Positions 3,168 through 18,710 of a stretch of DNA of 19,722 bases are shown here, one piece after another. The position numbers and the translations under genes are program-made. This DNA is from a virus (taxonomy: Duplodnaviria; Heunggongvirae; Uroviricota; Caudoviricetes). The DNA is taken from the IMG/VR virus record IMGVR_UViG_2537562019_000014. The stretch is one strand, 5' to 3'. Position 1 is the first letter of the stretch. Each line of letters begins with the position of its first letter. The notes beneath the pieces were generated by a model. The model had not been told where the DNA came from, searched no databases, and saw nothing but the letters and a program-made list of their open reading frames with translations.

Positions 3168-3228
3168 ACAGGTGTTTTTATAGTTTGCTTGAACGAGTGA
3201 TCAGAAGTTGATCGTTAATCAAAGGCCA

Positions 3229-3516: not shown

Positions 3517-3543
3517 TTTATCTCCTGTAACAGTTATCACAAC

Positions 3544-3939
3544 TCAATCAACTTTTTTAGCATCAGCCATACGCTTCAACCAGTAATCAACAATCGGCTG
3601 CTCATCCACAGAATGTTTACCAGGTATAACTCGCCAGCTATCTTGCGAAAATCTGCCGTACTTACGCGGGAATAGGCCTTTCTTTATCTCCCGCCATGTA
3701 CTAGGAAAACCATCCACAAAAGTACCAATTAACAGGAGAGGGACAAAAATCAGAGCTACAAACCATCGTGCAAGAAAGTGTTCAACAACAACATTTTCAC
3801 CGTTGTAGTAATACGCATACGCATCCAATATGCGAATTTTCCTTACCTTAAAAATAGCCTTATGCTGAGAACGACTTAACTTGATACGAATGTATCCCTT
3901 ATCCAAAGGGGATTCGTATTTGTATGATTGAACAGCCAT
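3544..3939 (-). CDS. Hypothetical membrane protein (131 aa from ATG)
   Basis: ATG at 3939 lies 2 nt after the stop of the upstream frameshifted ORF; central hydrophobic segment WFVALIFVPLLLIGTFV. Confidence 0.5.
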   Translation of the reverse strand: MAVQSYKYESPLDKGYIRIKLSRSQHKAIFKVRKIRILDAYAYYYNGENVVVEHFLARWFVALIFVPLLLIGTFVDGFPSTWREIKKGLFPRKYGRFSQDSWRVIPGKHSVDEQPIVDYWLKRMADAKKVD

Positions 3940-3941
3940 TT

Positions 3942-4267
3942 TTAACCCCACTCACCATCAGCAAACAAAGCGTTATACTCTGACAATGGTAGACGGTTGC
4001 CCTCGATGTAGAGATTCAGTTCATACTTCGTCTCCGGGTTTTCCTTGTCGGCTCGTTCCCAACGCTCAGCAGCCTCACGCGCCAATAATTCCACTGCTTT
4101 CAGATAATCCTCCGTACGGAACCAGCCAAAGATAAGGCCACGATCTGTTACAGCCCAGGCAACCTTTTTTCTTCCTCCTGGATAGCCTTAATGCGTCGAT
4201 CGCATTCATCCCGGCAAAACTGCAGCTGACGGTAATCAAGTTTGTCCAAAAATGCAGTAGTAGACAT
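3942..4267 (-). pseudogene. Hypothetical ~108-aa gene interrupted by a frameshift at an A6 tract (indel, slippage or sequencing error)
   Basis: ATG at 4267 with GGAG RBS; frame stops at 4148-4150 after 39 codons; the -1 frame is open from the A6 tract (T6 on plus, 4165-4170) to TAA at 3942-3944; one extra A would fuse both parts. Confidence 0.45.
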
Positions 4268-4271
4268 ATTT

Positions 4272-4463
4272 TTACTCCCCGTTCACCGAAAAATCACGAT
4301 AGAAACGTTTCCACATACGATAAGTCTGCGCGAGTTGTTCACCACGAAACATCGCCTTCCTGGCCTTCATGTTTTCCTTGTGAGACTTTCGATCTATGAA
4401 CCAAAACCATTGCTGGAACACACAAAGCAAGAGACACAAAGATAATATCCACTGATTACCCAT
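4272..4463 (-). CDS. Small membrane protein (63 aa) translationally coupled to repA
   Basis: ATG at 4463 overlaps the last codons of repA (TATGGGTAA); hydrophobic N-terminus WILSLCLLLCVFQQWFWFI followed by a basic tail; stop lies 4 nt before the next start. Confidence 0.45.
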   Translation of the reverse strand: MGNQWILSLCLLLCVFQQWFWFIDRKSHKENMKARKAMFRGEQLAQTYRMWKRFYRDFSVNGE

Positions 4464-7400
4464 AGAAAGCGCCCTGCTCTTCGTAGCTGCATGGGCTATT
4501 CCCGGTAATGTATTCACGTAACCGCCGCAGTTCATTGCTGGATAAGTGATCCATGAACTCTGTGAGGTACAGAGATGCAAACGTCATAGCTATGCTGGCT
4601 GATGACCATGATGACATAGTGGCCAGCTCCTCACCGGAAAGCGCACTCATCGCCCAGGACTCAGGTACAACCACTGGCAACACAGCCAAAGCCTCAGAAA
4701 TTACTGAATGAGGGGCGTTTTGAACCTGCTCGTTTGTGGATCGCGTTTTATCATCCATATATATATTGAGATCCAAATCGCGATCCATTTCGATGGCGGT
4801 CTTCTCGGCTTTACGCGTTTTCAGGGTTAGGCCATCTTTCTGACGCTGAGCAAGAATATCCAGCATAAATGCCGCTGATTCAGGCTCAACAAAACGCAAG
4901 GTTGGACGCTTATCGCCGTCTCTGCCGCGACGTTTACCTGTTTTAAGGCCAAGAGAGTCGCAAATGTTTTTAAACAACGCTTCCGGCACTTTAGGCTTCC
5001 CTTTTGGCGTCATAAAACCACCAATGTGCAGAACGTTATTCAACAGGTCACGGCGTTCGGCTGTCATGAGGTTATCTCGAGCAAATTTGAGACGCTCCTG
5101 AGTCGCCTCGCCGGTCATAGTCTCAGGGTTGATACCGCAGTCGATAAAGTACTGCCGGAGAGTTGCTGATTTAAGCGCATAGAAACCGCGCGCCCCGACT
5201 TCAACAGTAGGAGTAGCTTTTACCTTGTGATCGATTATTCCAGGGAATTTAGTTTTAAAGACATCATCAGCCTGCTCGCGAGTCATCGCGGTCACTACAA
5301 AATATTGCCACTGTCCCGCCTGACGGTATGCGTAGGTAAAATTGATGGCTGCTTCTTCCCGGTCGTAACGACGAGCTGTTACCTCATCTAAAAGCATTGT
5401 TTCATAGCGGCGAACTTTGTCTCGAGCACCATCGAAATAGAATTTCAGCGTGCCTTCTTCAACCGGTAGTTTCAGTTCGTTTTCAATATCCCAGCGGACA
5501 AGTTTTGCCTGTTCTTCAAGCGTCAGCGCGCGTTTTTTTAGCAGTTCTTCACGCTCTGATTCTTGTGGAGTTTCTGTATTGAGATGCAGATCCAGTGTCT
5601 GTTCCCACACAATATCCCGCGCTTCTTTACGCAGCTCTTTACCGATATCATTCGCAGCATAATCGGTGGCCAGCGGCGATACCTTATAACCGTCGCTGTG
5701 CATGATGCAGATCATGTTGCTGGCGTAGTCGTTACGCGCAGTCGCTTCAATAGCGGCTGCTTTAATTTTCATCCTGGTAAAGTCGGTATTGGCCACCCCC
5801 ATTGATATACGGTCGCCATCGAAAACGACATCCGTCAGTTCACCGTTCATACCTGCGGTAGCAAGCAATGCCTGGGCGAATGCTCGTTCTATTTTTTGCG
5901 GGTCAGTTTCACGTTTTGCACGAGCTTTATCAAAGCCGATAATAAATTCTTTTGCTGTACGGTCGCGGCGTAGCATTTGCACTGCGTCGCTGGGTACAAC
6001 TTCACCACAGAACATGCCGAAATGACGGTCAAAATGTTTTTGCTCAATCGACACGCCGGATGAAATAGACGGGCTATAAATCAGGCCGTCGTATTTTTTG
6101 ACCATCTTTTTCGGTTGATTGGTAAATGCTTCAACTTCTGGCTCTGGTTTGTTTTTCTGGTTTACACACAGAAATTTCTTACCAGGAAAATGCATTCTCA
6201 GGGTGGCTGTCACATCTTCTGCAAAGGTGGAGCTGTCGGTGGCCAACATGATTTTTTCGCCATCCGATACAGCTTTCACCACCTCGGTCATGATGCGATC
6301 TTTTTCTGTATAAAAAACCCGGATTGGCTCACCTGTTTCGCGGTTGCGAACATCAACAGGTAATTCAATTACGTGGATCTGCAGCCATGCCGGTAAACCT
6401 AGTTCTTCACGGCGTTTCATAGCCAGTTCAGCCAGGTCAACCAGCAGATCATTCGCATCAGCATCCACCATGATTGGGTGTTGTTCTGTTCTGGCCAGCG
6501 CGTCAATTAGCGTATTGAATACAGCCACCGGGTTTTCCATAGCCCGACCGGAAAGAACGGCACGTAGCCCTTGTGTGGCCTCGTCAAAGCCAAAATAGTC
6601 GTGCTGGCGCATCAACGGTTGCCAGCAGTTTTTAACAATCGAGTTTATGCAGATGGTCAGTTTACTGGCGTATGGAGCCATTTCCTGATAGCCAGGATCC
6701 TGATAGTGCAGGATATCGGCTTTTACACCTTTTCCTTCTGTCATCATTTCCCACAGGCCGCCAATAAGGGAGACACGGTGAGCAACAGAGATACCACGTT
6801 CTGAGCTATGCATTAACGGTCGTAACAATCCAGTAGATTTGCCGGAACCCATACCAGCACGGACGATGACTATCCCCTGTAGTGATTGCACGTACTTCAG
6901 GACATCATCGGTCATTACCGAAGTTTCAAAACGCTTATAGGTGATATGTTGAGGGCGTTTATTGGGATCAGTTATGCGTTCGCTGAAAGAGCGCGGAGCC
7001 TGGGCAATACGGCACTTTTTATTCAGGCGACGGGCAATGTGGTCTTTTACCGTAGCGCGATAGATATTTTCCAGTCCCATTTCACGCAGAACGATGCAGA
7101 ACATGTTAAATAAATCTGACGGACTGTTAGGAACCGGACAGGTTAGCATGCCAATATCCACCGCTCTCAGCAGCTCTTTGGCAAAAGTACGACGGTTATC
7201 CCGCTTAATTGTCTTCAGGCGGTTGAGCGTCAGAGATAGCAAATCAGTACCAGTTTTCAGGCGGTTTGCTGTTGCAAATAGTTGACGTGCTGTTTCACGA
7301 AGTCCACGTAGTTTGTGCAGGTCGTTGAAGTCACTGCACTCCATTTGCGGATCGTCTTCAAAAGTTGGATAGACGCAGCGGACATCGTTGAATTTCGATA

Positions 7401-8451
7401 AGATTTCATAGCCAGTCCGCAGGCCGGTATTCCCTTTTCCTTCTGTGGCAGATTTCCGGTCATTATCCAGTGCGCAGGTGATTTTTGCCGCCGGGTACAT
7501 GTTTACCAGTTGTTCCACAACATGAACCATGTTGTTAGCGGATACAGCGACAACCACAGCGTCAAAGCGTTTATCTTTTTTCGTGGCAAGCCAGATGGAT
7601 GCACCAGTAGCAAAACCTTCTGTAACAGCGATGTTTTGCGCCCCTTTCAGCTCACCGATAACAAAGCAGGCACCGACGAAATCGCCGCTGGTTACTGCGC
7701 TGGTCTGGTATTTTCCACCTTGTTTGTCGATTCGCTGCCAACCCACAATACGACCATCGTAACGACCGTCCAGGTGAGCCAGAGGGATAGCCATATACGT
7801 GGTTGGCCCCCTGCTCCATTTTGCGCTGTCGTGACTGGTCACGCGACGCACATCACACGAATTAAAAACGTCACGAATACCTTTTTTAATCGCATATGGC
7901 CATGAGCCGTCTTCTGCAGGAGCATGTTCCCACGCGCTGTGAAATGCCAGCCATCCCAGCAAACGTTCATGGTCAATTTGGTTGTTTTTCAGGTCATTAA
8001 TTCGTTTTTGTTCTTCACGGCGACGACGTGCTTCGGCCTGACGTTCTATTCTTGCCCGTTCTTCTTCCGGTTGTGCGACCACGGTCGCATTATTCCGTTG
8101 TTGCTCACGGCGATATTCAGAAAACAGGAAGGAGAAACCGCTCCATGAGCCAGCATCGCTGCCTTTATGGACGAAGTTAATGAACGGGTAATCAATCCCT
8201 TTGCTGTGTTCCAGCCGGGAGTAAATTTCTACGCGTCCTTTGAGGCTCTTCTCGAGAGCTTCTGGAGATGTTTTATTGTATGAAGAGTAACGCTCAACAC
8301 CCCCGCGAGGGTTGAGTTGGATGTTGTCGGAACAGGCAGGCCAGTTGATACCAGCCATCTGTGCCAGCTCGGTTAGTTCATCCCGTGCTGCTTCAATTAG
8401 CGAGAACGGATCGCTGCCAAAGCGATCCGCATAGAAATCGTTTAATGTCAT
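4456..8451 (-). CDS. repA: Replication protein RepA, multidomain primase-helicase
   Basis: 1331-aa ORF; Walker A motif GMGSGKST; TOPRIM-like primase region; size and position match N15 RepA (about 1324 aa) located between telN and cB. Confidence 0.85.
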   Translation of the reverse strand: MTLNDFYADRFGSDPFSLIEAARDELTELAQMAGINWPACSDNIQLNPRGGVERYSSYNKTSPEALEKSLKGRVEIYSRLEHSKGIDYPFINFVHKGSDAGSWSGFSFLFSEYRREQQRNNATVVAQPEEERARIERQAEARRRREEQKRINDLKNNQIDHERLLGWLAFHSAWEHAPAEDGSWPYAIKKGIRDVFNSCDVRRVTSHDSAKWSRGPTTYMAIPLAHLDGRYDGRIVGWQRIDKQGGKYQTSAVTSGDFVGACFVIGELKGAQNIAVTEGFATGASIWLATKKDKRFDAVVVAVSANNMVHVVEQLVNMYPAAKITCALDNDRKSATEGKGNTGLRTGYEILSKFNDVRCVYPTFEDDPQMECSDFNDLHKLRGLRETARQLFATANRLKTGTDLLSLTLNRLKTIKRDNRRTFAKELLRAVDIGMLTCPVPNSPSDLFNMFCIVLREMGLENIYRATVKDHIARRLNKKCRIAQAPRSFSERITDPNKRPQHITYKRFETSVMTDDVLKYVQSLQGIVIVRAGMGSGKSTGLLRPLMHSSERGISVAHRVSLIGGLWEMMTEGKGVKADILHYQDPGYQEMAPYASKLTICINSIVKNCWQPLMRQHDYFGFDEATQGLRAVLSGRAMENPVAVFNTLIDALARTEQHPIMVDADANDLLVDLAELAMKRREELGLPAWLQIHVIELPVDVRNRETGEPIRVFYTEKDRIMTEVVKAVSDGEKIMLATDSSTFAEDVTATLRMHFPGKKFLCVNQKNKPEPEVEAFTNQPKKMVKKYDGLIYSPSISSGVSIEQKHFDRHFGMFCGEVVPSDAVQMLRRDRTAKEFIIGFDKARAKRETDPQKIERAFAQALLATAGMNGELTDVVFDGDRISMGVANTDFTRMKIKAAAIEATARNDYASNMICIMHSDGYKVSPLATDYAANDIGKELRKEARDIVWEQTLDLHLNTETPQESEREELLKKRALTLEEQAKLVRWDIENELKLPVEEGTLKFYFDGARDKVRRYETMLLDEVTARRYDREEAAINFTYAYRQAGQWQYFVVTAMTREQADDVFKTKFPGIIDHKVKATPTVEVGARGFYALKSATLRQYFIDCGINPETMTGEATQERLKFARDNLMTAERRDLLNNVLHIGGFMTPKGKPKVPEALFKNICDSLGLKTGKRRGRDGDKRPTLRFVEPESAAFMLDILAQRQKDGLTLKTRKAEKTAIEMDRDLDLNIYMDDKTRSTNEQVQNAPHSVISEALAVLPVVVPESWAMSALSGEELATMSSWSSASIAMTFASLYLTEFMDHLSSNELRRLREYITGNSPCSYEEQGAFYG
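4737..4787. other. Candidate replication origin inside the 3' end of repA
   Basis: 9-bp inverted repeat TGGATCGCG / CGCGATCCA flanking a (TA)5 AT-rich core; three GATC sites within 50 bp; N15 ori is known to map within the 3' part of repA. Confidence 0.3.
8072..8089. repeat. SopB-type centromere-like palindrome, copy 1 (inside repA coding sequence)
   Basis: TGTGCGACCACGGTCGCA, 7-bp inverted arms with AC centre; closely resembles the F sopC SopB-binding repeat TGGGACCACGGTCCCA; one of four copies in the window. Confidence 0.55.
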
Positions 8452-8574
8452 TTTTTAGCCATTCCATGCGAATTATGTTTTTTCGGGTTGAAAAAATCCG
8501 CAGGAGCAGCCACAATAAACGCATCTTGAATTGACGGAATCCGTCGCTTTGTTGTGGCTGCTTCCTGAAAAGGA

Positions 8575-8602
8575 CCCGAGTTTGCCGACTCGGGTTTTTT
8601 TT
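8575..8602. terminator. Bidirectional intrinsic terminator between cB and repA
   Basis: CCCGAGT-TTGCCG-ACTCGGG 7-bp stem followed by T8 on the plus strand and preceded by an A-rich run (U-tract for the minus-strand transcript). Confidence 0.55.
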
Positions 8603-8696
8603 CGTCTTTTTTCTGCTGCTGTAACCTGAGTCAACCCACAGAACATATGCCCTGCATTAAACCAGATTTACAGCAAACAATAAACCCCGTATTAAG

Positions 8697-9293
8697 TCAT
8701 CTACCCTCAACCATGAATGATTTGATCGTTCCGACTATTTGGTGAACAAATTCAAGATCGCTTTTCCTGAAGATAGCGCGTTGTGAGTTTGTTCCATCCA
8801 GATAGTAATTTTCATCATCAAAACGGGCTAGGCGCTGGATAGTGATATTTCCTGCAGTATCACGAACCAGAACATCCTCGCCGGGGACCAGTTCCAGCGC
8901 AGAATCGACCAGGAGAAAATCGCCTGGCTGATAGTTTCCCTGCGTAAGATTGCTGATAGTTAACGCATACACAGTATTGCGCTGGCTGATGAATGGCAGG
9001 AATCGCTCAGTATTTGGAACCTGTCCCGGCTTCCACTCTTCATCAGGCCCACTTTCAGTTGTGCCAATAACAGGAATGCGATCAGGGTCATATTCTGTCC
9101 CATATAGCACCCAATGTACTGGCTTGCGTAAGCACTTAGCCAGGGCAATACCTATCTCCAGTGACGGCATTACGTCGCCACGTTCTAAGTTTTGGACGCC
9201 TGCTATAGAGATATCGACAGCCTCAGCAACTTCTCGCAACGTCAGCTTCATCTCTAAACGGCGTGCTTTCAGTCGTTCGCCTCGTGTTTTCAT
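8697..9293 (-). CDS. cB: CI-like prophage repressor (HTH N-terminal domain, LexA/CI-type C-terminal domain)
   Basis: 198-aa ORF divergent from a cro-like gene with operator palindromes between them; N-terminal XRE-type HTH (LTLREVAEAVDISIAGVQNLERG); position matches N15 cB. Confidence 0.8.
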   Translation of the reverse strand: MKTRGERLKARRLEMKLTLREVAEAVDISIAGVQNLERGDVMPSLEIGIALAKCLRKPVHWVLYGTEYDPDRIPVIGTTESGPDEEWKPGQVPNTERFLPFISQRNTVYALTISNLTQGNYQPGDFLLVDSALELVPGEDVLVRDTAGNITIQRLARFDDENYYLDGTNSQRAIFRKSDLEFVHQIVGTIKSFMVEGR

Positions 9294-9315
9294 ACTGTAA
9301 TCATAAATGATCTTC

Positions 9316-9357
9316 TTATAGCTGGCTATAAAATTTATTTATTATAGCTGGCTTTAA
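9316..9357. promoter_or_regulatory. Operator pair in the cB-cro divergent promoter region
   Basis: TTATAGC-TG-GCTATAA (9316-9331), a 16-bp near-palindrome, and a second imperfect copy TTATAGCTGGCTTTAA (9342-9357), 26 bp apart centre to centre. Confidence 0.5.
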
Positions 9358-9384
9358 TTATTGTTTATTGTTTATAATAACAAC

Positions 9385-9606
9385 ATGAAACCAGAAGAAC
9401 TTATTCGCCACTTTGGCAGTGTTGAAAAAGCAGCGGCAGGGGTAGGTGTAACACCCGGAGCTGTTTACCAATGGTTAACCGCTGGAGAGATTCCTTCATT
9501 GCGGCAAAGCGATATTGAAGTTCGTACTGCTTACAAGCTGAAGAGTGACTTTACAACTCGGCGGGTAAAGCAGTCGATTAAGGAGAGTCGTAAGCGTGGA
9601 GCTTGA
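9385..9606 (+). CDS. cro: Cro-like HTH regulator (73 aa from ATG 9385)
   Basis: Small HTH protein (GVTPGAVYQWLTAGEIP) divergent from cB; the ORF track begins at a TTG at 9361, ATG 9385 preferred. Confidence 0.65.
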   Translation: MKPEELIRHFGSVEKAAAGVGVTPGAVYQWLTAGEIPSLRQSDIEVRTAYKLKSDFTTRRVKQSIKESRKRGA

Positions 9607-10306
9607 GTATATACGCAGCTGCGTCTCTACGGCATTGGCTGATGTTCATTATCGCCAGCGTGGCATTCTGGAGGTCCAGCTTGAGCAGATGCGTCTCGGT
9701 AGATCAGGACGGTTTAACAATAAACCAGTCCGGTCAATCAGTGTGGGGGATGATAACTCATACGAAGTGTCCGTTCCCGCTGAGCCGGTTAGATTCCACC
9801 AGGGGAAAACATTTAAACAATCATCAATGTTGCTCACTGATATTGATTTTCAGAGCGCCAGCTGGCGCAGGGCTATTTGTCAGTTGAATAACGAGGAATC
9901 AGCCTGGCTTTATTATTGCTACGGATGCAAGCCTGACTACAACAATGATGTGATTGTTTGTCAGTGGTTATGGCTTGATTTTCTGGTTGCTCATTCGGGG
10001 GGCGGCTTTAAAAAAATGAAGGCCTCCACGAAAAAAGCCATGCGGAAATTGATTTATTACGCGGCACAGCAGGTTAAATCAGAACTTACGTGTGCTGAGG
10101 CAGTTGATGAGAGAGAACAGGACAGGCATCTGAGTTTTCTACTGAATATATCTATTGATAGCTGGAGACAAGATTATAAAGAACGCTGGCTTTTAATTAA
10201 GTCGCGATGTCTGAGCTTAAATCGAACCGCATTATTAAATGCGGCGGAGAAGCGCAGTGAAATCATCAAACGCCATCGGGCAGGAAGTGCCATTCTGCCT
10301 TTGTAA
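9596..10306 (+). CDS. 236-aa protein in the position of the N15 Q late-gene regulator; function not verifiable from sequence
   Basis: GTG start with AAGGAG RBS, overlaps the end of cro; synteny cB-cro-Q as in N15 immB; several Cys (YCYGC). Confidence 0.45.
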   Translation: MELEYIRSCVSTALADVHYRQRGILEVQLEQMRLGRSGRFNNKPVRSISVGDDNSYEVSVPAEPVRFHQGKTFKQSSMLLTDIDFQSASWRRAICQLNNEESAWLYYCYGCKPDYNNDVIVCQWLWLDFLVAHSGGGFKKMKASTKKAMRKLIYYAAQQVKSELTCAEAVDEREQDRHLSFLLNISIDSWRQDYKERWLLIKSRCLSLNRTALLNAAEKRSEIIKRHRAGSAILPL

Positions 10307-10559
10307 ACAAGTTATGTTCAGGAAACCGTCGAAGCCAGAATTAAGGTATTCGGGGGTAAGAAATGAATATGTCATCTGGTGTCCAACTTGCGGTTACAGG
10401 ACACGACCCGATAGTAATAAGCAGTCTGTAATTGCCGATTGGTATTTATCAAATCAGCCAGGTAATAAGCATATAGAAAATCTTTGGATTAAGCGTTATC
10501 TGGAAATTAGAGAGGGTGCGACCACGGTCGCACAAGAAAATGAAAATAACGCCATTTAA
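10257..10559 (+). CDS. Small putative zinc-ribbon protein (Cys pairs FCLC and CPTCG)
   Basis: GTG 10257 with GGAG RBS (alternative starts ATG 10239 or ATG 10316); overlaps the 3' end of the Q-position gene; contains centromere-like palindrome copy 2. Confidence 0.4.
   Translation: MKSSNAIGQEVPFCLCKQVMFRKPSKPELRYSGVRNEYVIWCPTCGYRTRPDSNKQSVIADWYLSNQPGNKHIENLWIKRYLEIREGATTVAQENENNAI
10516..10533. repeat. SopB-type centromere-like palindrome, copy 2
   Basis: GTGCGACCACGGTCGCAC, perfect 8-bp arms, inside the zinc-ribbon ORF. Confidence 0.55.
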
Positions 10560-10569
10560 ACAGGGGCCG

Positions 10570-10743
10570 ATGACGCATGATGAGGCAGAGCGTCTTTCAG
10601 ATACTTATCGGCGGCGTGGTAAGAAAGTTCTGGTTGTTCGTTCTGATTTTTTAGGTGATGGATATTGCGTTTATGTTCATTTACCTGAATCAGAAAGAGC
10701 ACCAAAACCATCCAGAACATATCAACAGAAGTTTTGGGCATAG
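10570..10743 (+). CDS. Hypothetical small protein (57 aa)
   Basis: ATG 11 nt after the upstream stop; no clear RBS; start uncertain (ORF track begins at 10516). Confidence 0.3.
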   Translation: MTHDEAERLSDTYRRRGKKVLVVRSDFLGDGYCVYVHLPESERAPKPSRTYQQKFWA

Positions 10744-10766
10744 ATAAACATTGAGGAGAATTATTC

Positions 10767-11366
10767 GTGACTAATCAGATAATTTACGACAGGAAACGGT
10801 CTGATGTAATGATTGACCTTGAAACAATGGGTACTAATACATGTGCTCCAATTGTTTCTATCGGGGCAGTGTTTTTTTCTCCTGAAAGTGAGGAATTAGG
10901 TGCCACTTTTTATGTACCAGTGAATCTCAGAAGCTCGATGTTAAATGGTGGTGTTGCCGATGGTGATACCATTTTATGGTGGTTGCGGCAGAGCAAGGAA
11001 GCCAGAGCCGCAATTTGTACTAATGATGCCCTTGATATTAATGATGCACTTTTTGAATTATCACACTTTATTACTTGCCATGCTTGTAATTTAAAAACAT
11101 TGAAAGTATGGGGAAATGGAGCAACGTTCGATAATGTAATTTTACGCGGCGCTTATGAGCGCGTTGGCTTATCCTGTCCGTGGGAATATTTTAATGATCA
11201 GGATGTTCGAACAATCGTTAATCTTGGTCAGTTTATTGGTTTTAATCCTAAAAAAGATATGCCATTTGATGGCGAACGACACAATGCCCTGGCTGATGCT
11301 ATTCATCAGGCTAAATATGTATCTGCAATTTTCTCCCGTCTTGTAAAAGGGCAAGGAGAATCGTAA
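10767..11366 (+). CDS. DEDDh-family (DnaQ-like) 3'-5' exonuclease
   Basis: GTG start with GAGGAG RBS; Exo I motif MIDLETMG near the N-terminus and C-terminal H-x4-D (ERHNALADA) typical of DEDDh exonucleases. Confidence 0.65.
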   Translation: MTNQIIYDRKRSDVMIDLETMGTNTCAPIVSIGAVFFSPESEELGATFYVPVNLRSSMLNGGVADGDTILWWLRQSKEARAAICTNDALDINDALFELSHFITCHACNLKTLKVWGNGATFDNVILRGAYERVGLSCPWEYFNDQDVRTIVNLGQFIGFNPKKDMPFDGERHNALADAIHQAKYVSAIFSRLVKGQGES

Positions 11367-11785
11367 TGGCAAAGGCTTTTACACCAGAACAGAGGGAAGA
11401 ACTGAATAAACAAATTGTGGAACTCGTGCGCCTGAATGGACGAGGAACGGTTAGGCAACTTGCGGATGAAACTGGTATTAGCCGGTGTGCTGTTAGTCGT
11501 TTATCAAGAGAGCTTGCTGCCAGTGGTGATTTGTATATCTCTGGCTCCGGGATATTTCTGTCTGCACAAGCACGCAAGGACTGGCAAAACGCCCGTAAAA
11601 AACTATCAAGAGTAAAGCCGAAGAAATCGGTAGTGGTTGATCCAGACCTTATCTGGTCATTACCTGACGGAGAAATACGTCGCTACGACAGGCGCCTGAA
11701 CATGATTTGTCACGATTGTCGGAAGAGCGAAGTTATGCAGCGTGTGTTGGCGTTTTATCAGGGAAATTTTCAGGAGGTGGCGTAG
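11366..11785 (+). CDS. Winged-helix/HTH-containing hypothetical protein (139 aa)
   Basis: AAGGAGAA RBS; start overlaps the upstream stop (TAATG); N-terminal HTH-like segment GTVRQLADETGISRCAVSRLSRELA. Confidence 0.6.
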   Translation: MAKAFTPEQREELNKQIVELVRLNGRGTVRQLADETGISRCAVSRLSRELAASGDLYISGSGIFLSAQARKDWQNARKKLSRVKPKKSVVVDPDLIWSLPDGEIRRYDRRLNMICHDCRKSEVMQRVLAFYQGNFQEVA

Positions 11786-12075
11786 TGAATATCGACACCA
11801 CGATAACGATCGATATGGCCCTAAATACCGGTCTGGCACTTCTCGGTTGGTTTTACATCATGTTCAGTGCGGGGAAGTGGGCGGCCTCTGTTTTTCTAAA
11901 GCAGTGGGGAAAGCGCCGCAAACAGGAAAAACGCCAGAAAGCGTTGGAGGCGTTCTATGACGCATTTGAACTTGGCCGCATTGAACCAGGTACAACAGCC
12001 AGGATAGCGACAAAAGGCGACCTGATGATAGTGATGTTCCGACAGGAGAGAGCAGAGAAAGGGGGATCAGCATGA
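11785..12075 (+). CDS. Small membrane protein (about 97 aa from GTG)
   Basis: GTG 11785 with AGGAGG RBS, overlapping the upstream stop (TAGTG); one predicted TM segment LALLGWFYIMF; the ORF track begins earlier at 11707. Confidence 0.45.
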   Translation: MNIDTTITIDMALNTGLALLGWFYIMFSAGKWAASVFLKQWGKRRKQEKRQKALEAFYDAFELGRIEPGTTARIATKGDLMIVMFRQERAEKGGSA

Positions 12076-12731
12076 AATTTTCCAAATTTTCTGAGTTGGT
12101 GAATCGTATTTTGTCCAACAACCACAGCCATCGTCGCGATATGGATGTAACAATCGTTGTTCATTCGCCTGGCAGCATTGGTTCAACACCTTCAGTTGAG
12201 GTTCAGTCAATTCACGCTGGTTTTGATTGGGATTCCGGGAAAGTGCTTATTTTCCCAACACAGCCACTGACCACGCTAACACCAGAACAGATTACTGATA
12301 TTACTGATAGTGTGCGCAAAGGTCAGTCTTGGCACGCATATCAGGAATATAAAAAGCATAAAGAGCAGTTGGAAAAATTGTCGATTGAGTTGGAATCAGC
12401 CAAAAATCACATAGCAGAACTGGAAGCCAAACCTGTAAGCCAAACTTACAAGTTAACTTTTGAGCAATGGCTGGAACAGCAGCATGACAAAATTGATGTT
12501 GATTGTGGATGTGTAAGTACAGAAATGCTTATGCACTGGATAAGGGTCGCGTATGAGGCTGGCAACTCTCCGGTAACTCCGGATGGTCATATTCAGTTTT
12601 CTGTTTCACTTCCTGCAGCATGTGGTGGAGATAAATATTTTATTGATGGTGTATTTCAACCTTTGAGATATGAGCGTGACTGTGAAAAAGCGGTTGTGGC
12701 CGCTGGCGGTGTAGTTAATTGGGTTAAGTAA
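12072..12731 (+). CDS. Hypothetical protein (219 aa), no recognisable domain
   Basis: ATG overlaps the upstream stop (ATGA); continues the coupled operon. Confidence 0.6.
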   Translation: MKFSKFSELVNRILSNNHSHRRDMDVTIVVHSPGSIGSTPSVEVQSIHAGFDWDSGKVLIFPTQPLTTLTPEQITDITDSVRKGQSWHAYQEYKKHKEQLEKLSIELESAKNHIAELEAKPVSQTYKLTFEQWLEQQHDKIDVDCGCVSTEMLMHWIRVAYEAGNSPVTPDGHIQFSVSLPAACGGDKYFIDGVFQPLRYERDCEKAVVAAGGVVNWVK

Positions 12732-12746
12732 TTTTCAGGAGGATTT

Positions 12747-13073
12747 ATGGCGCTGACAGCTGCAGAACGGCAAAGGAGACGCAGGGAACGGTTGAAGAAG
12801 GAAGGCACATCAAGACGGGACTGGATTCTGGAACCTGACGAGTTACGTATGTTGGGGGAAATTTGTGTATTGCGTAGACCAGGGCGAGTTCCATATTCAG
12901 AGAACGAAGTCATCGGACTGCTGATCAGGAAAAACTATAAGGAGTTGCAGAAACAGCTATCTACTACTTGTCCGCGATGTGGTCAAAGAATGCCTGTTTC
13001 AGAATGCATTTTTGATGGTGAAGGCTCATGCCACCTTACAACCACGAGGCTGAAACTTGCGCTCAAAGTGTGA
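12747..13073 (+). CDS. Hypothetical protein with Arg-rich N-terminus and a Cys/His cluster (108 aa)
   Basis: Strong AGGAGG RBS; N-terminus MALTAAERQRRRRERLKKEG suggests nucleic-acid binding; CPRCG...C..H near the C-terminus. Confidence 0.55.
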   Translation: MALTAAERQRRRRERLKKEGTSRRDWILEPDELRMLGEICVLRRPGRVPYSENEVIGLLIRKNYKELQKQLSTTCPRCGQRMPVSECIFDGEGSCHLTTTRLKLALKV

Positions 13074-13244
13074 CTGGTCACGGAGGGGTAAATGGACAAA
13101 AAGGCATTGCTTTTTGAAATGATACGAAAACGGAGCGAAAAGAGCTTTTCTGATGGTGGTGATGGGCTTTTGGAAGTGGTTGGGCGAGGCGCAGGAAGGG
13201 AACATAAGTATCGGACTACAAAGATATTTAACCAGTTAATCCAT

Positions 13245-13291
13245 TGAAAGCTGGCTATAAAATTTGAGTTTTACCCTGTAATTTTATACAG
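13245..13291. promoter_or_regulatory. Operator-like half-site plus LexA (SOS) box upstream of a small gene
   Basis: AGCTGGCTATAAAATTT (13245-13263) repeats the immB operator right half; CTGT-AATTTTAT-ACAG at 13276-13291 fits the LexA box consensus CTGT-N8-ACAG. Confidence 0.55.
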
Positions 13292-13315
13292 TATCAAATA
13301 ACCTTTTTTAATTAA

Positions 13316-13534
13316 ATGGTATTAGATTCAATGACTGAAGCACCTGTATCAACTCTTGAAGAACTCGGATCAAACCTAAAAGACATCGACGCCGTTTTGG
13401 ATCTGGTTAGCGTTGCTCTGGCTTCTCCAGAAGCCAGCTTGCATCTTGGCGAGATTTCACGACTTGTTAGTATGTCGCGGGAGATAGCTCAGAATTGCCA
13501 ACAAGTTATTGCTGTTGAGAGTTTACATCATTGA
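13316..13534 (+). CDS. Small acidic protein downstream of the LexA box; candidate antirepressor-type immA gene
   Basis: 72-aa ORF (alternative start ATG 13331); sits behind an SOS box and an operator-like motif; followed by a convergent hairpin. Confidence 0.4.
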   Translation: MVLDSMTEAPVSTLEELGSNLKDIDAVLDLVSVALASPEASLHLGEISRLVSMSREIAQNCQQVIAVESLHH

Positions 13535-13577
13535 TACACACCCCGCCCTTCCGGACGGGGTAGCGAAAAGGGTCTAA

Positions 13578-13865
13578 TCAATAGACGGCATTAATATTAA
13601 TCGTTGCACCGCATGCTTGGGCATATTTTGATAAAGTTTTCATGCTTGCCCCTAAAGGATTGCTTTCCAGGCGGCTGATAGCTGACGGGCGCAATCCCAT
13701 TCGTTCAGCCAGAGCTGACTTCGTTAAACCTGCTCTTTCCCTCATTTCGTATAACATTTCGACCATCTCCAGCTCTTTATCGGCCTCTTCATATCCTTTG
13801 ATGGCTTCTGGAGTGTTGAGAAGTTTTTCTTTTACTTCGTTAAACGGGATGCCTTTCGCTTTCAT
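13578..13865 (-). CDS. HTH (XRE-type) antitoxin, HigA-like
   Basis: 95-aa ORF with C-terminal HTH (LTKSALAERMGLRPSAISRLE); start overlaps the stop of the upstream toxin-like reading frame (TGATG). Confidence 0.7.
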   Translation of the reverse strand: MKAKGIPFNEVKEKLLNTPEAIKGYEEADKELEMVEMLYEMRERAGLTKSALAERMGLRPSAISRLESNPLGASMKTLSKYAQACGATININAVY

Positions 13866-14175
13866 CAGTTCATCTCCTTCAGGCGAGTTCTGGCGATTTC
13901 GATAGCCTTCACCGGTGTTTTCTGTGTCTTTTTTACAAATGCATGCAATAGATAAATTTCGTTACCAGTCGCGTAGGCGTACAGCGTTCTTGCGATGTTT
14001 TTTTCCCCTACTCGTATTCAAAAAGCCCTCCACCTATTACACGGCTATGGGGCATCTTCAGTTTGTTGCCTTCTTTCTCCAGTCGCTCAATTAATCTGGT
14101 CATGCGACCTCGCAAATCATCTGGTAGTTCAAGCAGTTCATCCAGTGCTGCAGGGTGGGTTATCACGTTAAACAT
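13865..14175 (-). pseudogene. HigB/RelE-like toxin (Gp49 family) disrupted by a 1-nt frameshift
   Basis: ATG 14175 with GGAGG RBS; frame stops at TAG 14008-14010 after ...GGGLFEYE; the -1 frame continues GEKNIARTLYAYATGNEIYLLHAFVKKTQKTP...; restoring one nt near 14014-14016 gives a contiguous ~103-aa toxin. Confidence 0.6.
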
Positions 14176-14233
14176 ATTATAGCCTCCATATCCATAAAAT
14201 ACACCAAAACAAGAAAACAGCGCAAATTAAAAA

Positions 14234-14251
14234 TTTCACTAAAAAGTGAAA
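14234..14251. promoter_or_regulatory. Palindromic operator candidate upstream of the toxin-antitoxin operon
   Basis: TTTCACT-AAAA-AGTGAAA perfect 7-bp inverted repeat, 59 bp upstream of the toxin start. Confidence 0.4.
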
Positions 14252-14340
14252 AATAACACTGGATGTGTTCGTTTGGCAGAGTTACAGTTCGTGTCATTGA
14301 GGGGCAATAACCCACTAACTATATGAATTTGGAGGATATT

Positions 14341-14562
14341 ATGAATTATCAAGGTAACGAAAAAATGCGCGACGACGTTGCGGAGATAGCTAACGAACTG
14401 TATGAGTTGTGGCAGAAGGTTGAACGTTTCGAAAAGGAATATGGTTTCAACAGTACCAACCTAGCAGACCGACTGGCTGGTCGCTTAGTTGGGACTATGG
14501 GGCCAAAACTGGCTGAGTTGAACCGCTTTATGGCTGATGTTGATTTCCAGTTTCAAGATTGA
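14341..14562 (+). CDS. Hypothetical protein (73 aa)
   Basis: ATG 14341 with GGAGG RBS and 5-nt spacer (the track start at 14323 has no RBS). Confidence 0.5.
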   Translation: MNYQGNEKMRDDVAEIANELYELWQKVERFEKEYGFNSTNLADRLAGRLVGTMGPKLAELNRFMADVDFQFQD

Positions 14563-14575
14563 TTAGAGAGGCGTT

Positions 14576-14803
14576 ATGAATATTAATGAAATTCGTGGAA
14601 ATATGACTGAAGCGGCCCTGAGTGTGGAATGTGTTATGCGTGGATACCCACGCATTTCCCTGAAAGAGTTAAGCGAAGCCTGTTTTTTGAGTCAGGCTGC
14701 CGTTGAATTTATCATCGAACAGATGATCTGTTTTGGGATTGCAAAGCGTAGCGGGTCTGGTCGATATTCTTTGACCGATGAATATAAGCAGGCAACTTTC
14801 TAA
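14576..14803 (+). CDS. Small winged-helix-like protein (75 aa)
   Basis: GAGAGG RBS; HTH-like segment ISLKELSEACFLSQAAVEFIIEQMICFGIAKRSG. Confidence 0.5.
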   Translation: MNINEIRGNMTEAALSVECVMRGYPRISLKELSEACFLSQAAVEFIIEQMICFGIAKRSGSGRYSLTDEYKQATF

Positions 14804-14806
14804 AAA

Positions 14807-14828
14807 CTGTGCGACCACGGTCGCACAG
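14807..14828. repeat. SopB-type centromere-like palindrome, copy 3 (extended to 10-bp arms)
   Basis: CTGTGCGACC-AC-GGTCGCACAG immediately after the stop of the preceding gene and upstream of the late-region hairpins. Confidence 0.55.
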
Positions 14829-14845
14829 CACAAAAACGAAAAAGC

Positions 14846-14874
14846 TTGGCAAAATGACGGTTTTTAGTTATTGT
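14846..14874 (+). promoter_or_regulatory. Candidate late promoter
   Basis: TTGGCA, 17-nt spacer, TATTGT; located upstream of a terminator and of the methylase/lysis/terminase genes, analogous to lambda PR'-tR'. Confidence 0.3.
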
Positions 14875-14911
14875 TTTGTTAAGTTGGGTTTTTTGTACCC
14901 AACAGCTAACA

Positions 14912-14935
14912 AGCCGCCTTTATGGCGGTTTTTTT
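14912..14935 (+). terminator. Intrinsic terminator (tR'-like) ahead of the late genes
   Basis: AGCCGCC-TTTAT-GGCGG stem followed by T7. Confidence 0.6.
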
Positions 14936-15070
14936 GTGCCTGAAAAGTGGGCGCAGGACAAGTTGCAGCTTGTCCTGCGGTCAACCCATGCCAGAGCTAT
15001 AGGCTGAACCTAAAGCCCACCCGCGATGCGCATCGCCGGGTTAGCTTACCCAGGCAAAAAAATAATAGCT

Positions 15071-16147
15071 ATGTTCAAAACCACTAATATTCATGGCGCG
15101 CAACTCGTTTGCGCAGATTCTCTGCAATTTATCAAAACCATCCCTGATAACTCGGTCAATTTGATTGCAACAGACCCACCATACTTCGGCGTAAAGGCTA
15201 ACGCATGGGATAACCAGTGGGATAGCGATGCTGACTTTTTGGGGTGGATTGACGAATTTTTGGCAGAATTTTGGCGGATATTGGCCCCTAATGGCAGCCT
15301 GTATATGTTTACCGGCTCTCGCCTTGCGTCAAAAATTGAATTATTAACTCGCGACCGTTTCAATGTTCTGAACCATATCATTTGGGCTAAACCCAGTGGT
15401 ATGTGGCGCGGTTGTCATAAAGAAAGTTTAAGGGCTTATTTTCCTGCTACTGAAAGAATATTATTTGCAGAGCATTACGGCGCGTCAGGTTATGCGAAAG
15501 GTCAGTCAGGTTATGCTTCAAAATGTGCAGATTTAAGAAAAAATATTTTTTCTCCACTAATTGATGCTTTTTCGCTGGCTCGCCGTCAGTTAGATATATC
15601 AGCCGCAGACATTAATTCAGCGACAGGAAAGCAGATGTGTTCACACTGGTTTTCTTATTCGCAGTGGCGGCTTCCATCATTAATTGATTTTAATAAACTA
15701 TGCGAATTATTTCGCAGGAAGGCAGATTCACTCGGTGTCCAGTGTCCATATCCTTTTAATGTTGATTATTCAGAACATGAAAAGCGTTATAGCGATCTGA
15801 AATTACATTATGAGGAAGTAAAGAAGCAGTATGATGATTTGAAGGTGCAGTATGAAAATTTACGCCGTCCATTTCATGTTACTGCTGATGTACCTTATAC
15901 CGATGTATGGGAGTTTCCTCCTGTGCAATATTATCCTGGCAAGCACCCATGTGAAAAACCTGCAGCGATGATGGAACATATTATAAAGAGTAGTTCACGC
16001 CCCGGAGATATCGTTGCCGATTTCTTTATGGGATCAGGCTCAACTATTAAAGCTGCGCTGAAGTTAGGACGTCAGGCAATAGGTATTGAGATTGAGAGCG
16101 AACGTTATCTTCAGACAGTTGATGAAGTGAAAAAGTTATTTGAGTAA
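15071..16147 (+). CDS. DNA methyltransferase (N6-adenine/N4-cytosine class), no cognate restriction enzyme seen
   Basis: DPPY catalytic motif near the N-terminus (LIATDPPYFG) and AdoMet-binding FxGxG (FFMGSGST) near the C-terminus; ATG 15071 preferred over 15026, which lies inside a palindrome. Confidence 0.8.
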   Translation: MFKTTNIHGAQLVCADSLQFIKTIPDNSVNLIATDPPYFGVKANAWDNQWDSDADFLGWIDEFLAEFWRILAPNGSLYMFTGSRLASKIELLTRDRFNVLNHIIWAKPSGMWRGCHKESLRAYFPATERILFAEHYGASGYAKGQSGYASKCADLRKNIFSPLIDAFSLARRQLDISAADINSATGKQMCSHWFSYSQWRLPSLIDFNKLCELFRRKADSLGVQCPYPFNVDYSEHEKRYSDLKLHYEEVKKQYDDLKVQYENLRRPFHVTADVPYTDVWEFPPVQYYPGKHPCEKPAAMMEHIIKSSSRPGDIVADFFMGSGSTIKAALKLGRQAIGIEIESERYLQTVDEVKKLFE

Positions 16148-16242
16148 CTGGAGAATATATTCCCCTGCCGTTTTTGGTAGGGGTTATTTTTGCCATATAG
16201 TTTCCAAGCCGAAACCTCAGCAACTATTGCGAGGTAAGAGAT

Positions 16243-16515
16243 ATGAAGATGGATGAACGATACAGCAGTGCATCTTATGGTAGCGCTGGTCTTGCTGCGT
16301 TCTTTGCCAGCCTGTCATTGCAGGATTGGGGCTTCATTATCGGTGTCGCGTTCAGCATTATCCTCGGTGTGCTTACATACCGGCTCAATAAACGCGAGCA
16401 GATGAAGCGCACGAAGATATTGCAGGACATATTGGATAAAACTGATGCCAATAATATTTCTGCCACGGCGATGGTTATTGGTGAATTGGGAAAGAGAGCA
16501 CCGAAGGAAATATGA
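16243..16515 (+). CDS. Holin, phage-21 S-type pinholin-like
   Basis: 90 aa with two hydrophobic segments; pattern [10 protein letters not shown]...[12 protein letters not shown] resembles the S21 pinholin; directly precedes a SAR endolysin. Confidence 0.6.
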
Positions 16516-17012
16516 TGCAGTCATCATTACGCAAAGCTGTCGCAACTGCTATTGGTGGCGGGGCTATTGCCATAGCATCTGTGCTCATCTCTGGTCCGAG
16601 CGGCAACGATGGTCTGGAAGGTGTGAAATATAACCCCTACAAAGACATCGTTGGTGTATGGACTGTATGTTACGGGCATACAGGAAAAGACATTATGCTC
16701 GGTAAAACGTATACCGAAGCAGAATGCAAAGCTCTCCTGAATAAAGACCTTGCTACTGTCGCCATACAAATTAACCCGTACATCAAAGTCGATATACCGG
16801 AAACAACGCGCGGTGCTCTTTACTCGTTCGTTTACAACGTGGGTGCAGGCAATTTCAGAACATCGACACTTCTTCGCAAAATCAACCAGGGCGATATCAA
16901 AGGTGCATGTGATCAACTACGTCGCTGGACATATGCTGGCGGTAAGCAATGGAAAGGCCTGATGACTCGTCGTGAGATTGAGCGTGAAGTCTGTTTGTGG
17001 GGGCAACAATGA
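16512..17012 (+). CDS. SAR endolysin (GH24 lysozyme, phage-21 R-like)
   Basis: N-terminal Gly/Ala-rich signal-anchor-release segment [20 protein letters not shown], then a lysozyme domain; start overlaps the holin stop. Confidence 0.85.
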
Positions 17013-17476
17013 GCAGAGTAACCGCAATTATCTCCGCTCTGGTTATCTGCATCATCGTCTGCCTGTCGTGGGCGGTCAATCATTACCGTGATAACGCCAT
17101 CGTCTACAAAGAACAGCGAGATAAAAAAGTCAGTGAGCTGAAGCAGGCGACCGCCACCATTACTGACATGCAGCAGCGCCAGCGTTCTGCTGATGCACTC
17201 GATGCTAAATACACGAAGGAGTTAGCTTATGCGAAAGCTGAAAATGATGCTCTTCGGCGCAAGCTTGATAATGGTGGTCGGGTGTTCGTCAAAGGAAAAT
17301 GCCCTGTGCCATCCTCAGCCGAAACCTCCAGCGCCTCCGGCATGGGCAATGATGCCACCGTCGAACTCTCTCCAGTTGCTGGACGAAACGTTCTCGGTAT
17401 CCGGGACGGAATTATCCGCGACCAAACAGCACTGAGAACGCTTCAGGAATACATCGGGACGCAATGCCTTCGATGA
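17009..17476 (+). CDS. Rz: Rz-like inner-membrane spanin
   Basis: ATG overlaps the endolysin stop (ATGA); N-terminal TM segment then coiled-coil-like region; contains an embedded +1-frame lipoprotein gene. Confidence 0.75.
17229..17435 (+). CDS. Rz1: Rz1-like outer-membrane lipoprotein spanin, embedded in Rz
   Basis: Entirely within Rz in another frame; lipobox VVGC; proline-rich mature region [11 protein letters not shown], similar to lambda Rz1. Confidence 0.7.
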
Positions 17477-17649
17477 TAGCGATAATTTTACTCATCATCC
17501 TTCACATCTGGCTCTGTAGACAGGATGGTGATCACTTCTGGAGTGAATCCAGATTAAACATCTCATTGCTGATGCTTGATATTGAGCATCTTGCGCGCGG
17601 TAAGGGGCTGCGTTGAGATAAGAGCCAGTCATTACAAATACCAGGATTT

Positions 17650-17674
17650 AGCCTCGCATTCGCGGGGCTTTTTA
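17650..17674 (+). terminator. Intrinsic terminator downstream of the lysis cassette
   Basis: AGCCTCGC-ATTC-GCGGGGCT stem with one G-U pair, followed by TTTTTA. Confidence 0.5.
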
Positions 17675-17885
17675 TATCTGAATTTCACAGCGCATCTCAC
17701 GCGCATATTAACGAGAGCCTTTCAGTAAGCGAGCCTGAGAAATGCCGTGAACGGGATTATTTCACACTCAGAGAGCGAATCGTCACAGTGACGAAACAGG
17801 TTGGATATTTGCAGGAGTACATCAGGACGCAATGCCTGAATTAATCCATCTGCATCAAACACGAACTCAATTTGTTGGATAGTGA

Positions 17886-18197
17886 ATGAAAATTTATATT
17901 GCCGGGCCAATGACGGGATATGAGAACTCTAATCGTGACGCCTTTAATAAAGAGGCTGATCGTTTGTCACGACATGGTCACTCTGTCTTGAATCCAGCCT
18001 CTTTGCCTAATGGTCTGACACAACGTGAATACATGGATATTTGCTTTGCAATGCTCCGTTGTGCTGATGCTATTTTGATGCTTCCTGGCTGGAAAGCGTC
18101 TGCTGGAGCAACTGCTGAGTATCATTACGCATACAAGATGGAGATGCCGGTATTCACTACGTTGAATTACCCGCCAGCTTGTTCCTCTGTAGCATAA
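17886..18197 (+). CDS. Hypothetical protein (103 aa), nucleoside 2-deoxyribosyltransferase-like (DUF4406-type) N-terminal signature
   Basis: N-terminus MKIYIAGPMTG, recalled as characteristic of that phage-associated family. Confidence 0.45.
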   Translation: MKIYIAGPMTGYENSNRDAFNKEADRLSRHGHSVLNPASLPNGLTQREYMDICFAMLRCADAILMLPGWKASAGATAEYHYAYKMEMPVFTTLNYPPACSSVA

Positions 18198-18216
18198 AAA
18201 TCTCTTTGTTTCTCGT

Positions 18217-18234
18217 GTGCGACCGTGGTCGCAC
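18217..18234. repeat. SopB-type centromere-like palindrome, copy 4 (centre GT, inverted orientation)
   Basis: GTGCGACC-GT-GGTCGCAC, 20 nt after the stop of the preceding gene. Confidence 0.55.
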
Positions 18235-18262
18235 GCATTTCTTTTATTGCTTTGAGGTAGAT

Positions 18263-18472
18263 ATGTCAGTAGCTGTTTTCGAGGCACTCAATGCACGTAT
18301 TAACCAACTTGAAAGTAAGGTGAAGGAATACGAGCAGCGACAGGCTGAGGCAGATGAGAAGACTCAGAACGAACTTTTCCTGGAGTTTCTTGCCATCGTT
18401 CACGAACTGATGCCGTTAGTTAATCAGGCGCTGATGACAGGACTGAAGGATGGAGATTTACACAGTAGGTAA
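18263..18472 (+). CDS. Hypothetical small helical protein (69 aa)
   Basis: ATG 18263 with GAGG RBS; the ORF track begins earlier at 18179 without RBS support. Confidence 0.5.
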   Translation: MSVAVFEALNARINQLESKVKEYEQRQAEADEKTQNELFLEFLAIVHELMPLVNQALMTGLKDGDLHSR

Positions 18473-18489
18473 ACCTGATCTTCTGTCTT

Positions 18490-18700
18490 ACGGGTCCTTT
18501 CCGGTGATCCGGAGCGTTACGGGGCGGAAGGCGCGCGGGTTTTCGCTATTTATGAAAATTTTCCGGTTTAAGGCGTTTCCGTTCTTCTTCTCCGTAACTT
18601 CATGTTTTTATTTAAAACACCCCCTGAAAAGAAAGGAAACGACAGATGCTGAAAACGGGCTTTTTGGCCTTTGTCGTTTCCTTTCTCTGTTTTTGTCCGT
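18490..18700. other. Lambda-type cos region (cosQ/cosN/cosB); cosN 12-mer at 18522-18533
   Basis: Near-identical to recalled lambda genome termini: ...TTACGGGTCCTTTCCGGTGATCC...GTTACG | GGGCGGAAGGCG | CGCGGGTTTTCGCTATTTATGAAAATTTTCCGG...; R-site-like CGTTTCCTTTCT upstream of Nu1. Confidence 0.7.
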
Positions 18701-18710
18701 GGAATGAATA

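Follow-up and report, generated by a model that had tools for sequence, protein, structure and literature searches.

The window analyzed here is the whole of a 19,722-nucleotide (nt) stretch of the IMG/VR record IMGVR_UViG_2537562019_000014, and our subject is a palindrome, GTGCGACC-NN-GGTCGCAC, that occurs in it four times and is a predicted binding site of the plasmid partition protein SopB. From left to right, the four copies (IR1 to IR4, named after their counterparts in phage N15) lie within repA, beyond the Q antiterminator gene, before a late promoter-like site, and upstream of cos (Table 1). Judged from its sequence, the window belongs to an Escherichia coli telomere phage of the N15 type that is an uncharacterized relative of N15. 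It is approximately 97% identical to the Escherichia phage PhiR46_1 and, to the same degree, to E. coli and Shigella plasmids of approximately 46 kb that are annotated with a protelomerase and a CyRepA1-type replication protein. A record identical to the entire window was not present in the collection searched. N15 itself was ruled out as the source, since the two share only about 76% nucleotide identity over part of the early region. The protelomerase gene near the left end identifies the replicon as a linear plasmid-prophage.

The palindromes were located by searching the window for GTGCGACCNNGGTCGCAC with up to two mismatches. All four of the 18-base-pair (bp) copies listed in a preliminary description of this DNA were recovered, although two of the intervals had to be adjusted: the first copy lies at 8073-8090 and not at 8072-8089, and 14807-14828 is the extent of a 22-bp extended palindrome around the third. 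The 16-bp core, TGCGACC-NN-GGTCGCA, is perfect in every copy, and perfection extends to 18 bp in three of the four. The same search returned no match in any of 200 dinucleotide-preserving shuffles of the window. Within the window, the 8-bp arm GTGCGACC is confined to the four palindromes, where it occurs 7 times against 0.33 expected, and a search of the window for isolated half-sites found none outside them. Degenerate extra sites, sought in the window with the 14-bp core at three mismatches, yielded matches at chance level only. Separated by 2,443, 4,293, and 3,408 bp, the four copies constitute the top direct-repeat family of the window. The AC and GT centers are opposite-strand readings of one and the same site. 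Neither a tandem array of the sopC kind nor, at up to one mismatch, the F-type box TGGGACC-NN-GGTCCCA was found in the window.

Each copy has a distinct setting. IR1 coincides with codons 122 to 126, in the 5' part of repA; these encode A-T-V-V-A within the longer string ...N-A-T-V-V-A-Q-P.... IR2 is situated 210 bp past the Q stop codon, in the 3' end of an open reading frame (ORF), 10239-10559, whose product reads ...G-A-T-T-V-A-Q-E... at this point. The two boxes share a common codon phase, GCG ACC NNG GTC GCA, and the mirrored peptides to which attention had been drawn, ATVVAQ in repA and ATTVAQ in the zinc-ribbon ORF, are both encoded as described. The zinc-ribbon ORF is probably a real gene. 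It has a weak match to Lar_restr_allev (E = 3.5e-4, which is under the Pfam cut-off), and its counterparts in N15 and phiKO2 are 106 and 100 amino acids (aa) long, respectively; it is unannotated in N15 and PhiR46_1, is labeled "orf QD1" in YDC107_1, and appears as the Lar-like ORF44 in PY54.

IR3 fills most of the gap between a gp51-like ORF, whose stop codon precedes it by 6 bp, and the late promoter-like site, whose −35 element follows it after 19 bp; in the N15 and phiKO2 records, this arrangement is annotated as a late promoter. IR4 is found 20 bp past an ORF of the DUF4406 family and approximately 300 bp upstream of cosN. Of the two copies that were originally placed beside promoter-like regions, the third therefore keeps that position (next to 14846-14874), whereas the fourth is neighbored by a terminator-like feature and cos. 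The region around IR4 is also a mosaic junction: relatives differ in sequence to the right of the palindrome, and the box is the exact point at which the flanks change over. Two palindromes 220 bp apart occupy this spot in PhiR46_1 (L001, 17793-17810 and 18013-18030) and in YDC107_1 (L006, 18300 and 18520), and a single one is present in the window (18217), in pZ1323HEC0355-3, and in record L003.

The four sites are orthologous to those of N15. The same 18-mer occurs four times in the N15 GenBank sequence (L002): at 33479 in gene 37 (repA), at 35930 after gene 40 (Q), at 41124, which is 21 bp before the annotated −35 element of the late promoter (41162), and at 45561, the counterpart of IR4, which is annotated as the stem-loop of a putative rho-independent terminator. 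Lane and co-workers built an artificial centromere from oligonucleotides that carry the four N15 IR sites (PMC7205306, Table 4). The 18-bp core of these oligonucleotides is the same as that of the window sites, and their flanks are homologous to the window flanks. On the array of the four IRs, N15 SopB formed normal foci (PMC7205306). Together with the four sites in the GenBank sequence, this agreement supports the earlier proposal of a dispersed centromere in the style of N15. At IR1 of N15 (L002, 33479-33496), we noticed that GenBank gives GAGCGACC... and the oligonucleotide of PMC7205306 gives GTGCGACC..., a difference of one base at position 2 of the 18-mer.

Corresponding sites are present in other members of the group. 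The GenBank record of phiKO2 (NC_005857) lists four "putative plasmid partitioning sites" as misc_features, with an identical core and at the same four syntenic positions, the third of which (45384-45401) precedes an annotated "putative late promoter." Five copies occur in PhiR46_1 and four in pZ1323HEC0355-3; every one of them falls within the part that corresponds to the window, and the structural genes contain none. In the PhiR46_1 and RefSeq plasmid records examined, the four sites are unannotated. Two further publications contributed nothing on this point: bioRxiv 2024.03.26.585537 mentions N15 only as the source of TelN, with nothing on the N15 sites, and PMC4488713 contains nothing on partition.

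The genes for the partner proteins are present on a nearly identical molecule. A contig that was found via its exact TelN protein, L135 (GCA_050759235.1), matches window positions 1-12101 at 99.99% identity, the alignment having one gap and no mismatches. Among its genes are those for SopB (321 aa, PF18090 SoPB_HTH; L135 677-1642) and SopA (388 aa); sopA ends 429 bp left of the point at which the window begins, and sopB lies behind it. PhiR46_1 and pZ1323HEC0355-3 carry ParA and ParB genes in the same place. The expectation that sopAB would be located beyond the telomere site was thus correct. YDC107_1 (L006) was left out of this placement because it is a telomere read-through. The PhiR46_1 record opens with telL, two bases before the window start. 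Since the window starts inside the tel palindrome, it begins at one end of the linear prophage, and the other end of that molecule carries sopAB. The sites in the window are 8 to 18 kb from the tel site, and sopAB lie beyond it.

The type of box and the type of SopB also agree. The boxes of F and N15 differ solely at position 4 of each half-site, and exchanging SopB residues 177-198 (F) and 179-200 (N15) exchanged the binding specificity, which was mapped to the recognition helix and to position 4 of the site (PMC2910045). It is at this position that the window box departs from the F sopC repeat by one base per arm, as the preliminary description had stated. The ParB of PhiR46_1 is 74% identical to N15 SopB and matches solved structures of F SopB. 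In our alignment, a D-R-N-I-(I/V)-x-R-C helix accompanies GCGACC boxes in N15, phiKO2, PhiR46_1, L003, and L135, and an S-R-K-I-I-x-R-C helix accompanies GGGACC boxes in F SopB and PY54 SpyB. The individual variants are D-R-N-I-I-(S/T)-R-C in PhiR46_1, L003, and L135, D-R-N-I-V-N-R-C in N15, and S-R-K-I-I-T-R-C in F. Across the aligned proteins, box type tracks the SopB recognition helix. This relationship is also reflected in repA. The codons at the repA site are GCG ACC GTG GTC GCA (A-T-V-V-A) in the window, N15, and phiKO2, except that the last alanine of N15 is encoded by the synonymous GCT, and in PY54 they are GGG ACC ACG GTC CCA (G-T-T-V-P). The RepA protein follows the DNA box type, which indicates selection on the DNA site and not on RepA alone.

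On this evidence, we consider it very probable that the four palindromes are dispersed centromere (parS-like) sites of a type Ia SopABC system in an N15-like linear plasmid-prophage. A dimer of the phage SopB, a helix-turn-helix protein of the ParB family, would bind each 16- to 18-bp inverted repeat with one recognition helix per arm, leaving the two central bases free to vary. The SopB-DNA complexes and the Walker-type ATPase SopA would then place plasmid copies in both daughter cells, and partition of this kind would keep the low-copy linear prophage stable. The sites would act redundantly, scattered as they are over approximately 10 kb of the early and late-regulatory region and not clustered by sopAB as in F. 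Two of them are beside lytic-control elements (Q and the late promoter), where bound SopB probably also affects late gene expression, as has been reported for N15, and IR4 may double as a transcription terminator. SopB binding and SopAB-dependent stabilization by each site have been reported for N15. The N15 centromere sites IR1 to IR4 are attributed to Ravin and Lane (1999) and to Grigoriev and Lobocka (2001), and the latter reportedly found that each N15 palindrome alone was able to stabilize a test plasmid. For the phage represented by the window, we infer SopB binding, partition activity, stabilization by each site, and the effect on late expression by analogy with the work on N15 and F. 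The dispersed centromere of the N15 type is biology that has already been described, and it is encountered here in an uncharacterized relative.

Several further features of the replicon were identified (Table 1). The Rfam matches at 2904-3104 on the minus strand correspond to an antisense-controlled anti-immunity region of the P1/P4/N15 type, upstream of icd/ant-like genes. A second palindrome, of the TTATAGCTGGCTATAA type, occurs three times. The two copies between the repressor and cro genes are likely operators of CB and Cro, and the third stands by itself upstream of ORF 13316-13534. The listed ORF 18450-18707 spans cos and is unlikely to be a gene. The window and the E. coli CI5 prophage share the cohesive-end sequence GGGCGGAAGGCG, from which that of lambda (GGGCGGCGACCT) differs. 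Among the public assemblies, L132, L133, and YDC107_1 (L006) are inverted-duplicate read-throughs of hairpin telomeres with two facing telN genes; in the palindromic YDC107_1 record, telN and repA are duplicated and inverted.

Table 1. Coordinates of the predicted SopB boxes and other features of the window, and of the corresponding boxes in phiKO2 and PY54
Feature	Record	Position	Strand	Sequence	Comment
IR1-type SopB box (predicted)	Window	8073-8090		GTGCGACCACGGTCGCAT	1 mismatch, at the outermost base (last base T)
IR2-type SopB box (predicted)	Window	10516-10533		GTGCGACCACGGTCGCAC	Perfect over 18 bp
IR3-type SopB box (predicted)	Window	14809-14826			Perfect over 18 bp; 22-bp extended palindrome CTGTGCGACCACGGTCGCACAG at 14807-14828
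IR4-type SopB box (predicted)	Window	18217-18234		GTGCGACCGTGGTCGCAC	Perfect over 18 bp; extended stem 18215-18236
Telomere-resolution palindrome	Window	1-20		ATTATACGCGCGTATAAT	Core same as N15 telRL
Protelomerase (TelN/TelK family)	Window	201-2102	+		Four TelK domains, E-values down to 1e-50
C4 antisense RNA (82 bits), isrK (68 bits), c4 a1/b1 target (49 bits)	Window	2904-3104	-		Rfam
repA, primase/helicase-type replication protein, 1331 aa	Window	4456-8451	-		Contains IR1
TTATAGCTGGCTATAA-type palindrome, three copies	Window	Two at 9313-9364, one within 13242-13267			
Q antiterminator	Window	9596-10306			
Zinc-ribbon (Lar-like) four-cysteine ORF, 106 aa	Window	10239-10559	+		Overlaps Q end; contains IR2
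Late (Q-dependent) promoter-like site	Window	14846-14874	+	TTGGCA-17-TATTGT	Beside IR3
Terminator-like hairpin	Window	14911-14931			3' of promoter-like site 14846-14874
cos	Window	~18520-18566			cosN ~18520-18535; lambda-like cosB-side sequence GGTTTTCGCTATTTATGAAAATTTTCCGG at 18538-18566
IR1 counterpart	phiKO2	37905-37922			
IR2 counterpart	phiKO2	40345-40362			
IR3 counterpart	phiKO2	45384-45401			
IR4 counterpart	phiKO2	48618-48635			
F-type boxes	PY54 (L005)	508, 6566, 22251, 26513, 30984, 31240, 34394, 39870, 40976, 41121, 44409			

Some observations weigh against a centromere function for the palindromes. sopAB is absent within the window itself, and IR4 fits the pattern of a terminator. 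Because IR1 and IR2 are within coding sequence, a constraint at the protein level could account for part of their conservation; the comparison of the PY54 and N15-type repA codons argues against such a constraint as the main cause. Integrated lambdoid prophages also have an identical palindrome upstream of cos, and sequence alone is thus no proof of centromere function at every copy. The terminator-like character of IR4 leads to the question of whether the palindromes serve as RNA or DNA hairpins, that is, as intrinsic terminators or RNA-stability elements and not as protein-binding centromeres. As hairpins, they fold at -12 to -16 kcal/mol, and IR4 combines a 9-bp stem with the tail ATTTCTTTTA (18215-18236), directly 3' of the DUF4406 ORF; the IR4 of N15 is annotated as a putative rho-independent terminator. 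However, IR4 is the sole copy with a terminator-like score. IR3 has no T tract on the plus strand, and termination at IR1 and IR2, which are inside ORFs, would truncate repA and the zinc-ribbon ORF. Furthermore, the arms are invariant and show no free compensatory change. The telomere phages display a single symmetric change, the G that replaces C at position 4 in PY54, and it accompanies the SopB recognition helix. We regard a hairpin role in place of a centromere as highly improbable.

That the palindromes are operators of a regulator other than SopB, such as the CB repressor, Cro, Q, RepA, or TelN, is scarcely credible. Two sites do adjoin regulatory elements, namely, Q and the late promoter, but the putative CB/Cro operators are a different repeat (9313-9364), N15 annotates its own at 34056-34094 and 34729-34793, and the tel palindrome is different as well. 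Site type follows the SopB helix, and it is SopB of N15 that forms foci on the 4×IR array (PMC7205306). A narrower alternative applies to IR4 alone, which could be a passenger of a lambda-type cos/late module, marking a recombination junction and playing no part in partition here. An exact palindrome is indeed present about 110 bp upstream of cos in E. coli CI5, within an integrated lambdoid prophage, and it is present in IMG/VR loci that have a lambda-type P/ren/nin or late-region context, and the relatives of the window vary at this position (two copies in PhiR46_1 and YDC107_1, one in L003), with flanks that switch exactly at the palindrome. Against this, IR4 matches the SopB consensus perfectly, the IR4 of N15 occupies the equivalent right-end position and forms part of the functional 4×IR centromere (PMC7205306), and a perfect site on SopB's own molecule would be bound whatever its origin. 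Exclusion of IR4 from the centromere is, in our estimation, decidedly unlikely.

The distribution of the box outside the window was examined with an exact-pattern scan of IMG/VR, which gave at least 157 sites in at least 120 loci. Among the matches listed, 90 of 157 sites were at IR2-, IR3-, or IR4-type positions of N15-like loci (29, 33, and 28, respectively), and approximately 56 were in loci without N15 markers. Chance occurrence in G+C-rich phages was rejected as the source of the latter, only one of which is in a locus above 58% G+C (L098). This locus aside, the sites without N15 markers among the matches listed fall into three recurrent flank families. Two of these families directly follow a major capsid gene of the HK97/PY54 type (L024 at 4071, L010 at 7220, and approximately 40 other loci among the matches listed), and some of these boxes have extended arms of 13 bp. 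When one such locus was compared by BLAST, its only matches were to capsid genes from phiKO2-like Klebsiella phages, which suggests that the post-capsid boxes are probably extra sites in Klebsiella phage-plasmids. In phiKO2 itself, the capsid gene is followed by an ordinary terminator and no box.

The third flank family, positioned approximately 110 bp upstream of cos, includes some N15-like loci (L015, L110) as well as loci with a lambda-type P/ren/nin or late-region context (L048 at 5987, L103 at 2250). It also includes the E. coli CI5 chromosome (L138, 20097-20114), where the box belongs to a prophage that is integrated at mdtA, with int/xis adjacent. Other records examined at this spot are L127 (48654) and L130 (560-600). 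No N15-type genes were found in the lambdoid pre-cos stretches examined, where the context was lambda-type or that of a chromosomal prophage. The box is exact in E. coli CI5, L048, and L103. Lambda_2B8 has a symmetric two-base variant, GTGCAACC-GT-GGTTGCAC (GTGCAACCGTGGTTGCAC), and in Lambda_4C10 the palindrome is precisely deleted, and the resulting 29-bp gap has GGTCTGT repeats at its borders. With 221 bp around the pre-cos site as the query, 1,312 chromosomal places in E. coli genomes were matched, with at least 80% of the query covered in 157 genomes, and the late/cos module is approximately 97% identical between the lambdoid and N15-like groups. The lambdoid box is more likely a neutral passenger that was transferred by recombination within this shared module. 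We think it unlikely that the N15-type box has spread beyond plasmid-prophages as a functional decoy or hitch-hiking site of lambdoid phages. If it had, the lambdoid box could titrate or recruit the SopB of a coresident N15-like plasmid-prophage and cause centromere incompatibility or silencing near cos. The alternative to such a decoy would be an independent role near cos.

These findings suggest that the four sites should be annotated as centromere (SopB-binding) sites in the lineage of the window. They confirm that the dispersed layout known from N15 is positionally conserved across telomere phages of E. coli, Klebsiella, and Yersinia, even where box specificity has switched alongside SopB. 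The same box by cos in integrated lambdoid prophages is the sole loose end of wider interest.

Compared with known systems, the four sites resemble the chromosomal parS sites of Spo0J/ParB, which are likewise single, scattered 16-bp palindromes bound by a helix-turn-helix ParB (PMC3597684) but have the consensus tGTTNCACGTGNAACa and are clustered around oriC. The F plasmid shares with the window a type Ia SopA/SopB system and a 16-bp inverted repeat, which in F is bound by a SopB dimer. Its sopC repeat, TGGGACCACGGTCCCA (PMC3597684), differs from the window box at the one position per arm described above and is arranged as 12 tandem 43-bp repeats beside sopB, whereas the window sites are kilobases apart, remote from sopAB, and without a tandem array. 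The Yersinia telomere phage PY54 has dispersed boxes, one of them at the same place in repA and another in the Lar-like ORF44 after Q (34394), but these are of the TGGGACC-NN-GGTCCCA type and are accompanied by an F-like SRK helix in SpyB. At up to one mismatch, PY54 carries 11 dispersed F-type boxes against approximately 0.1 expected. The box at 22251, inside spyB, is a GGGACC/GGTCGC hybrid. phiKO2, which has the same core at the same four positions, differs in being a Klebsiella phage with HK97-like structural genes, and its site annotation is predictive only. N15 is a separate species, with the limited identity in the shared early region mentioned above, and the late genes of the window are lambda-like. 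The imperfect base of IR1 is on the opposite arm in N15, the central dinucleotides are AC, TC, AT, and AC in N15 and AC/GT in the window, and IR4 follows the gene 58 methylase in N15 but the DUF4406 ORF, close to cos, in the window. Nevertheless, N15 and the window have in common four dispersed copies with the same 18-bp core, homologous flanks, and the same type of SopB recognition helix. The placements of the copies also agree, with one in the 5' portion of repA, one past Q, one ahead of the late promoter, and one at the right end, ahead of cos.

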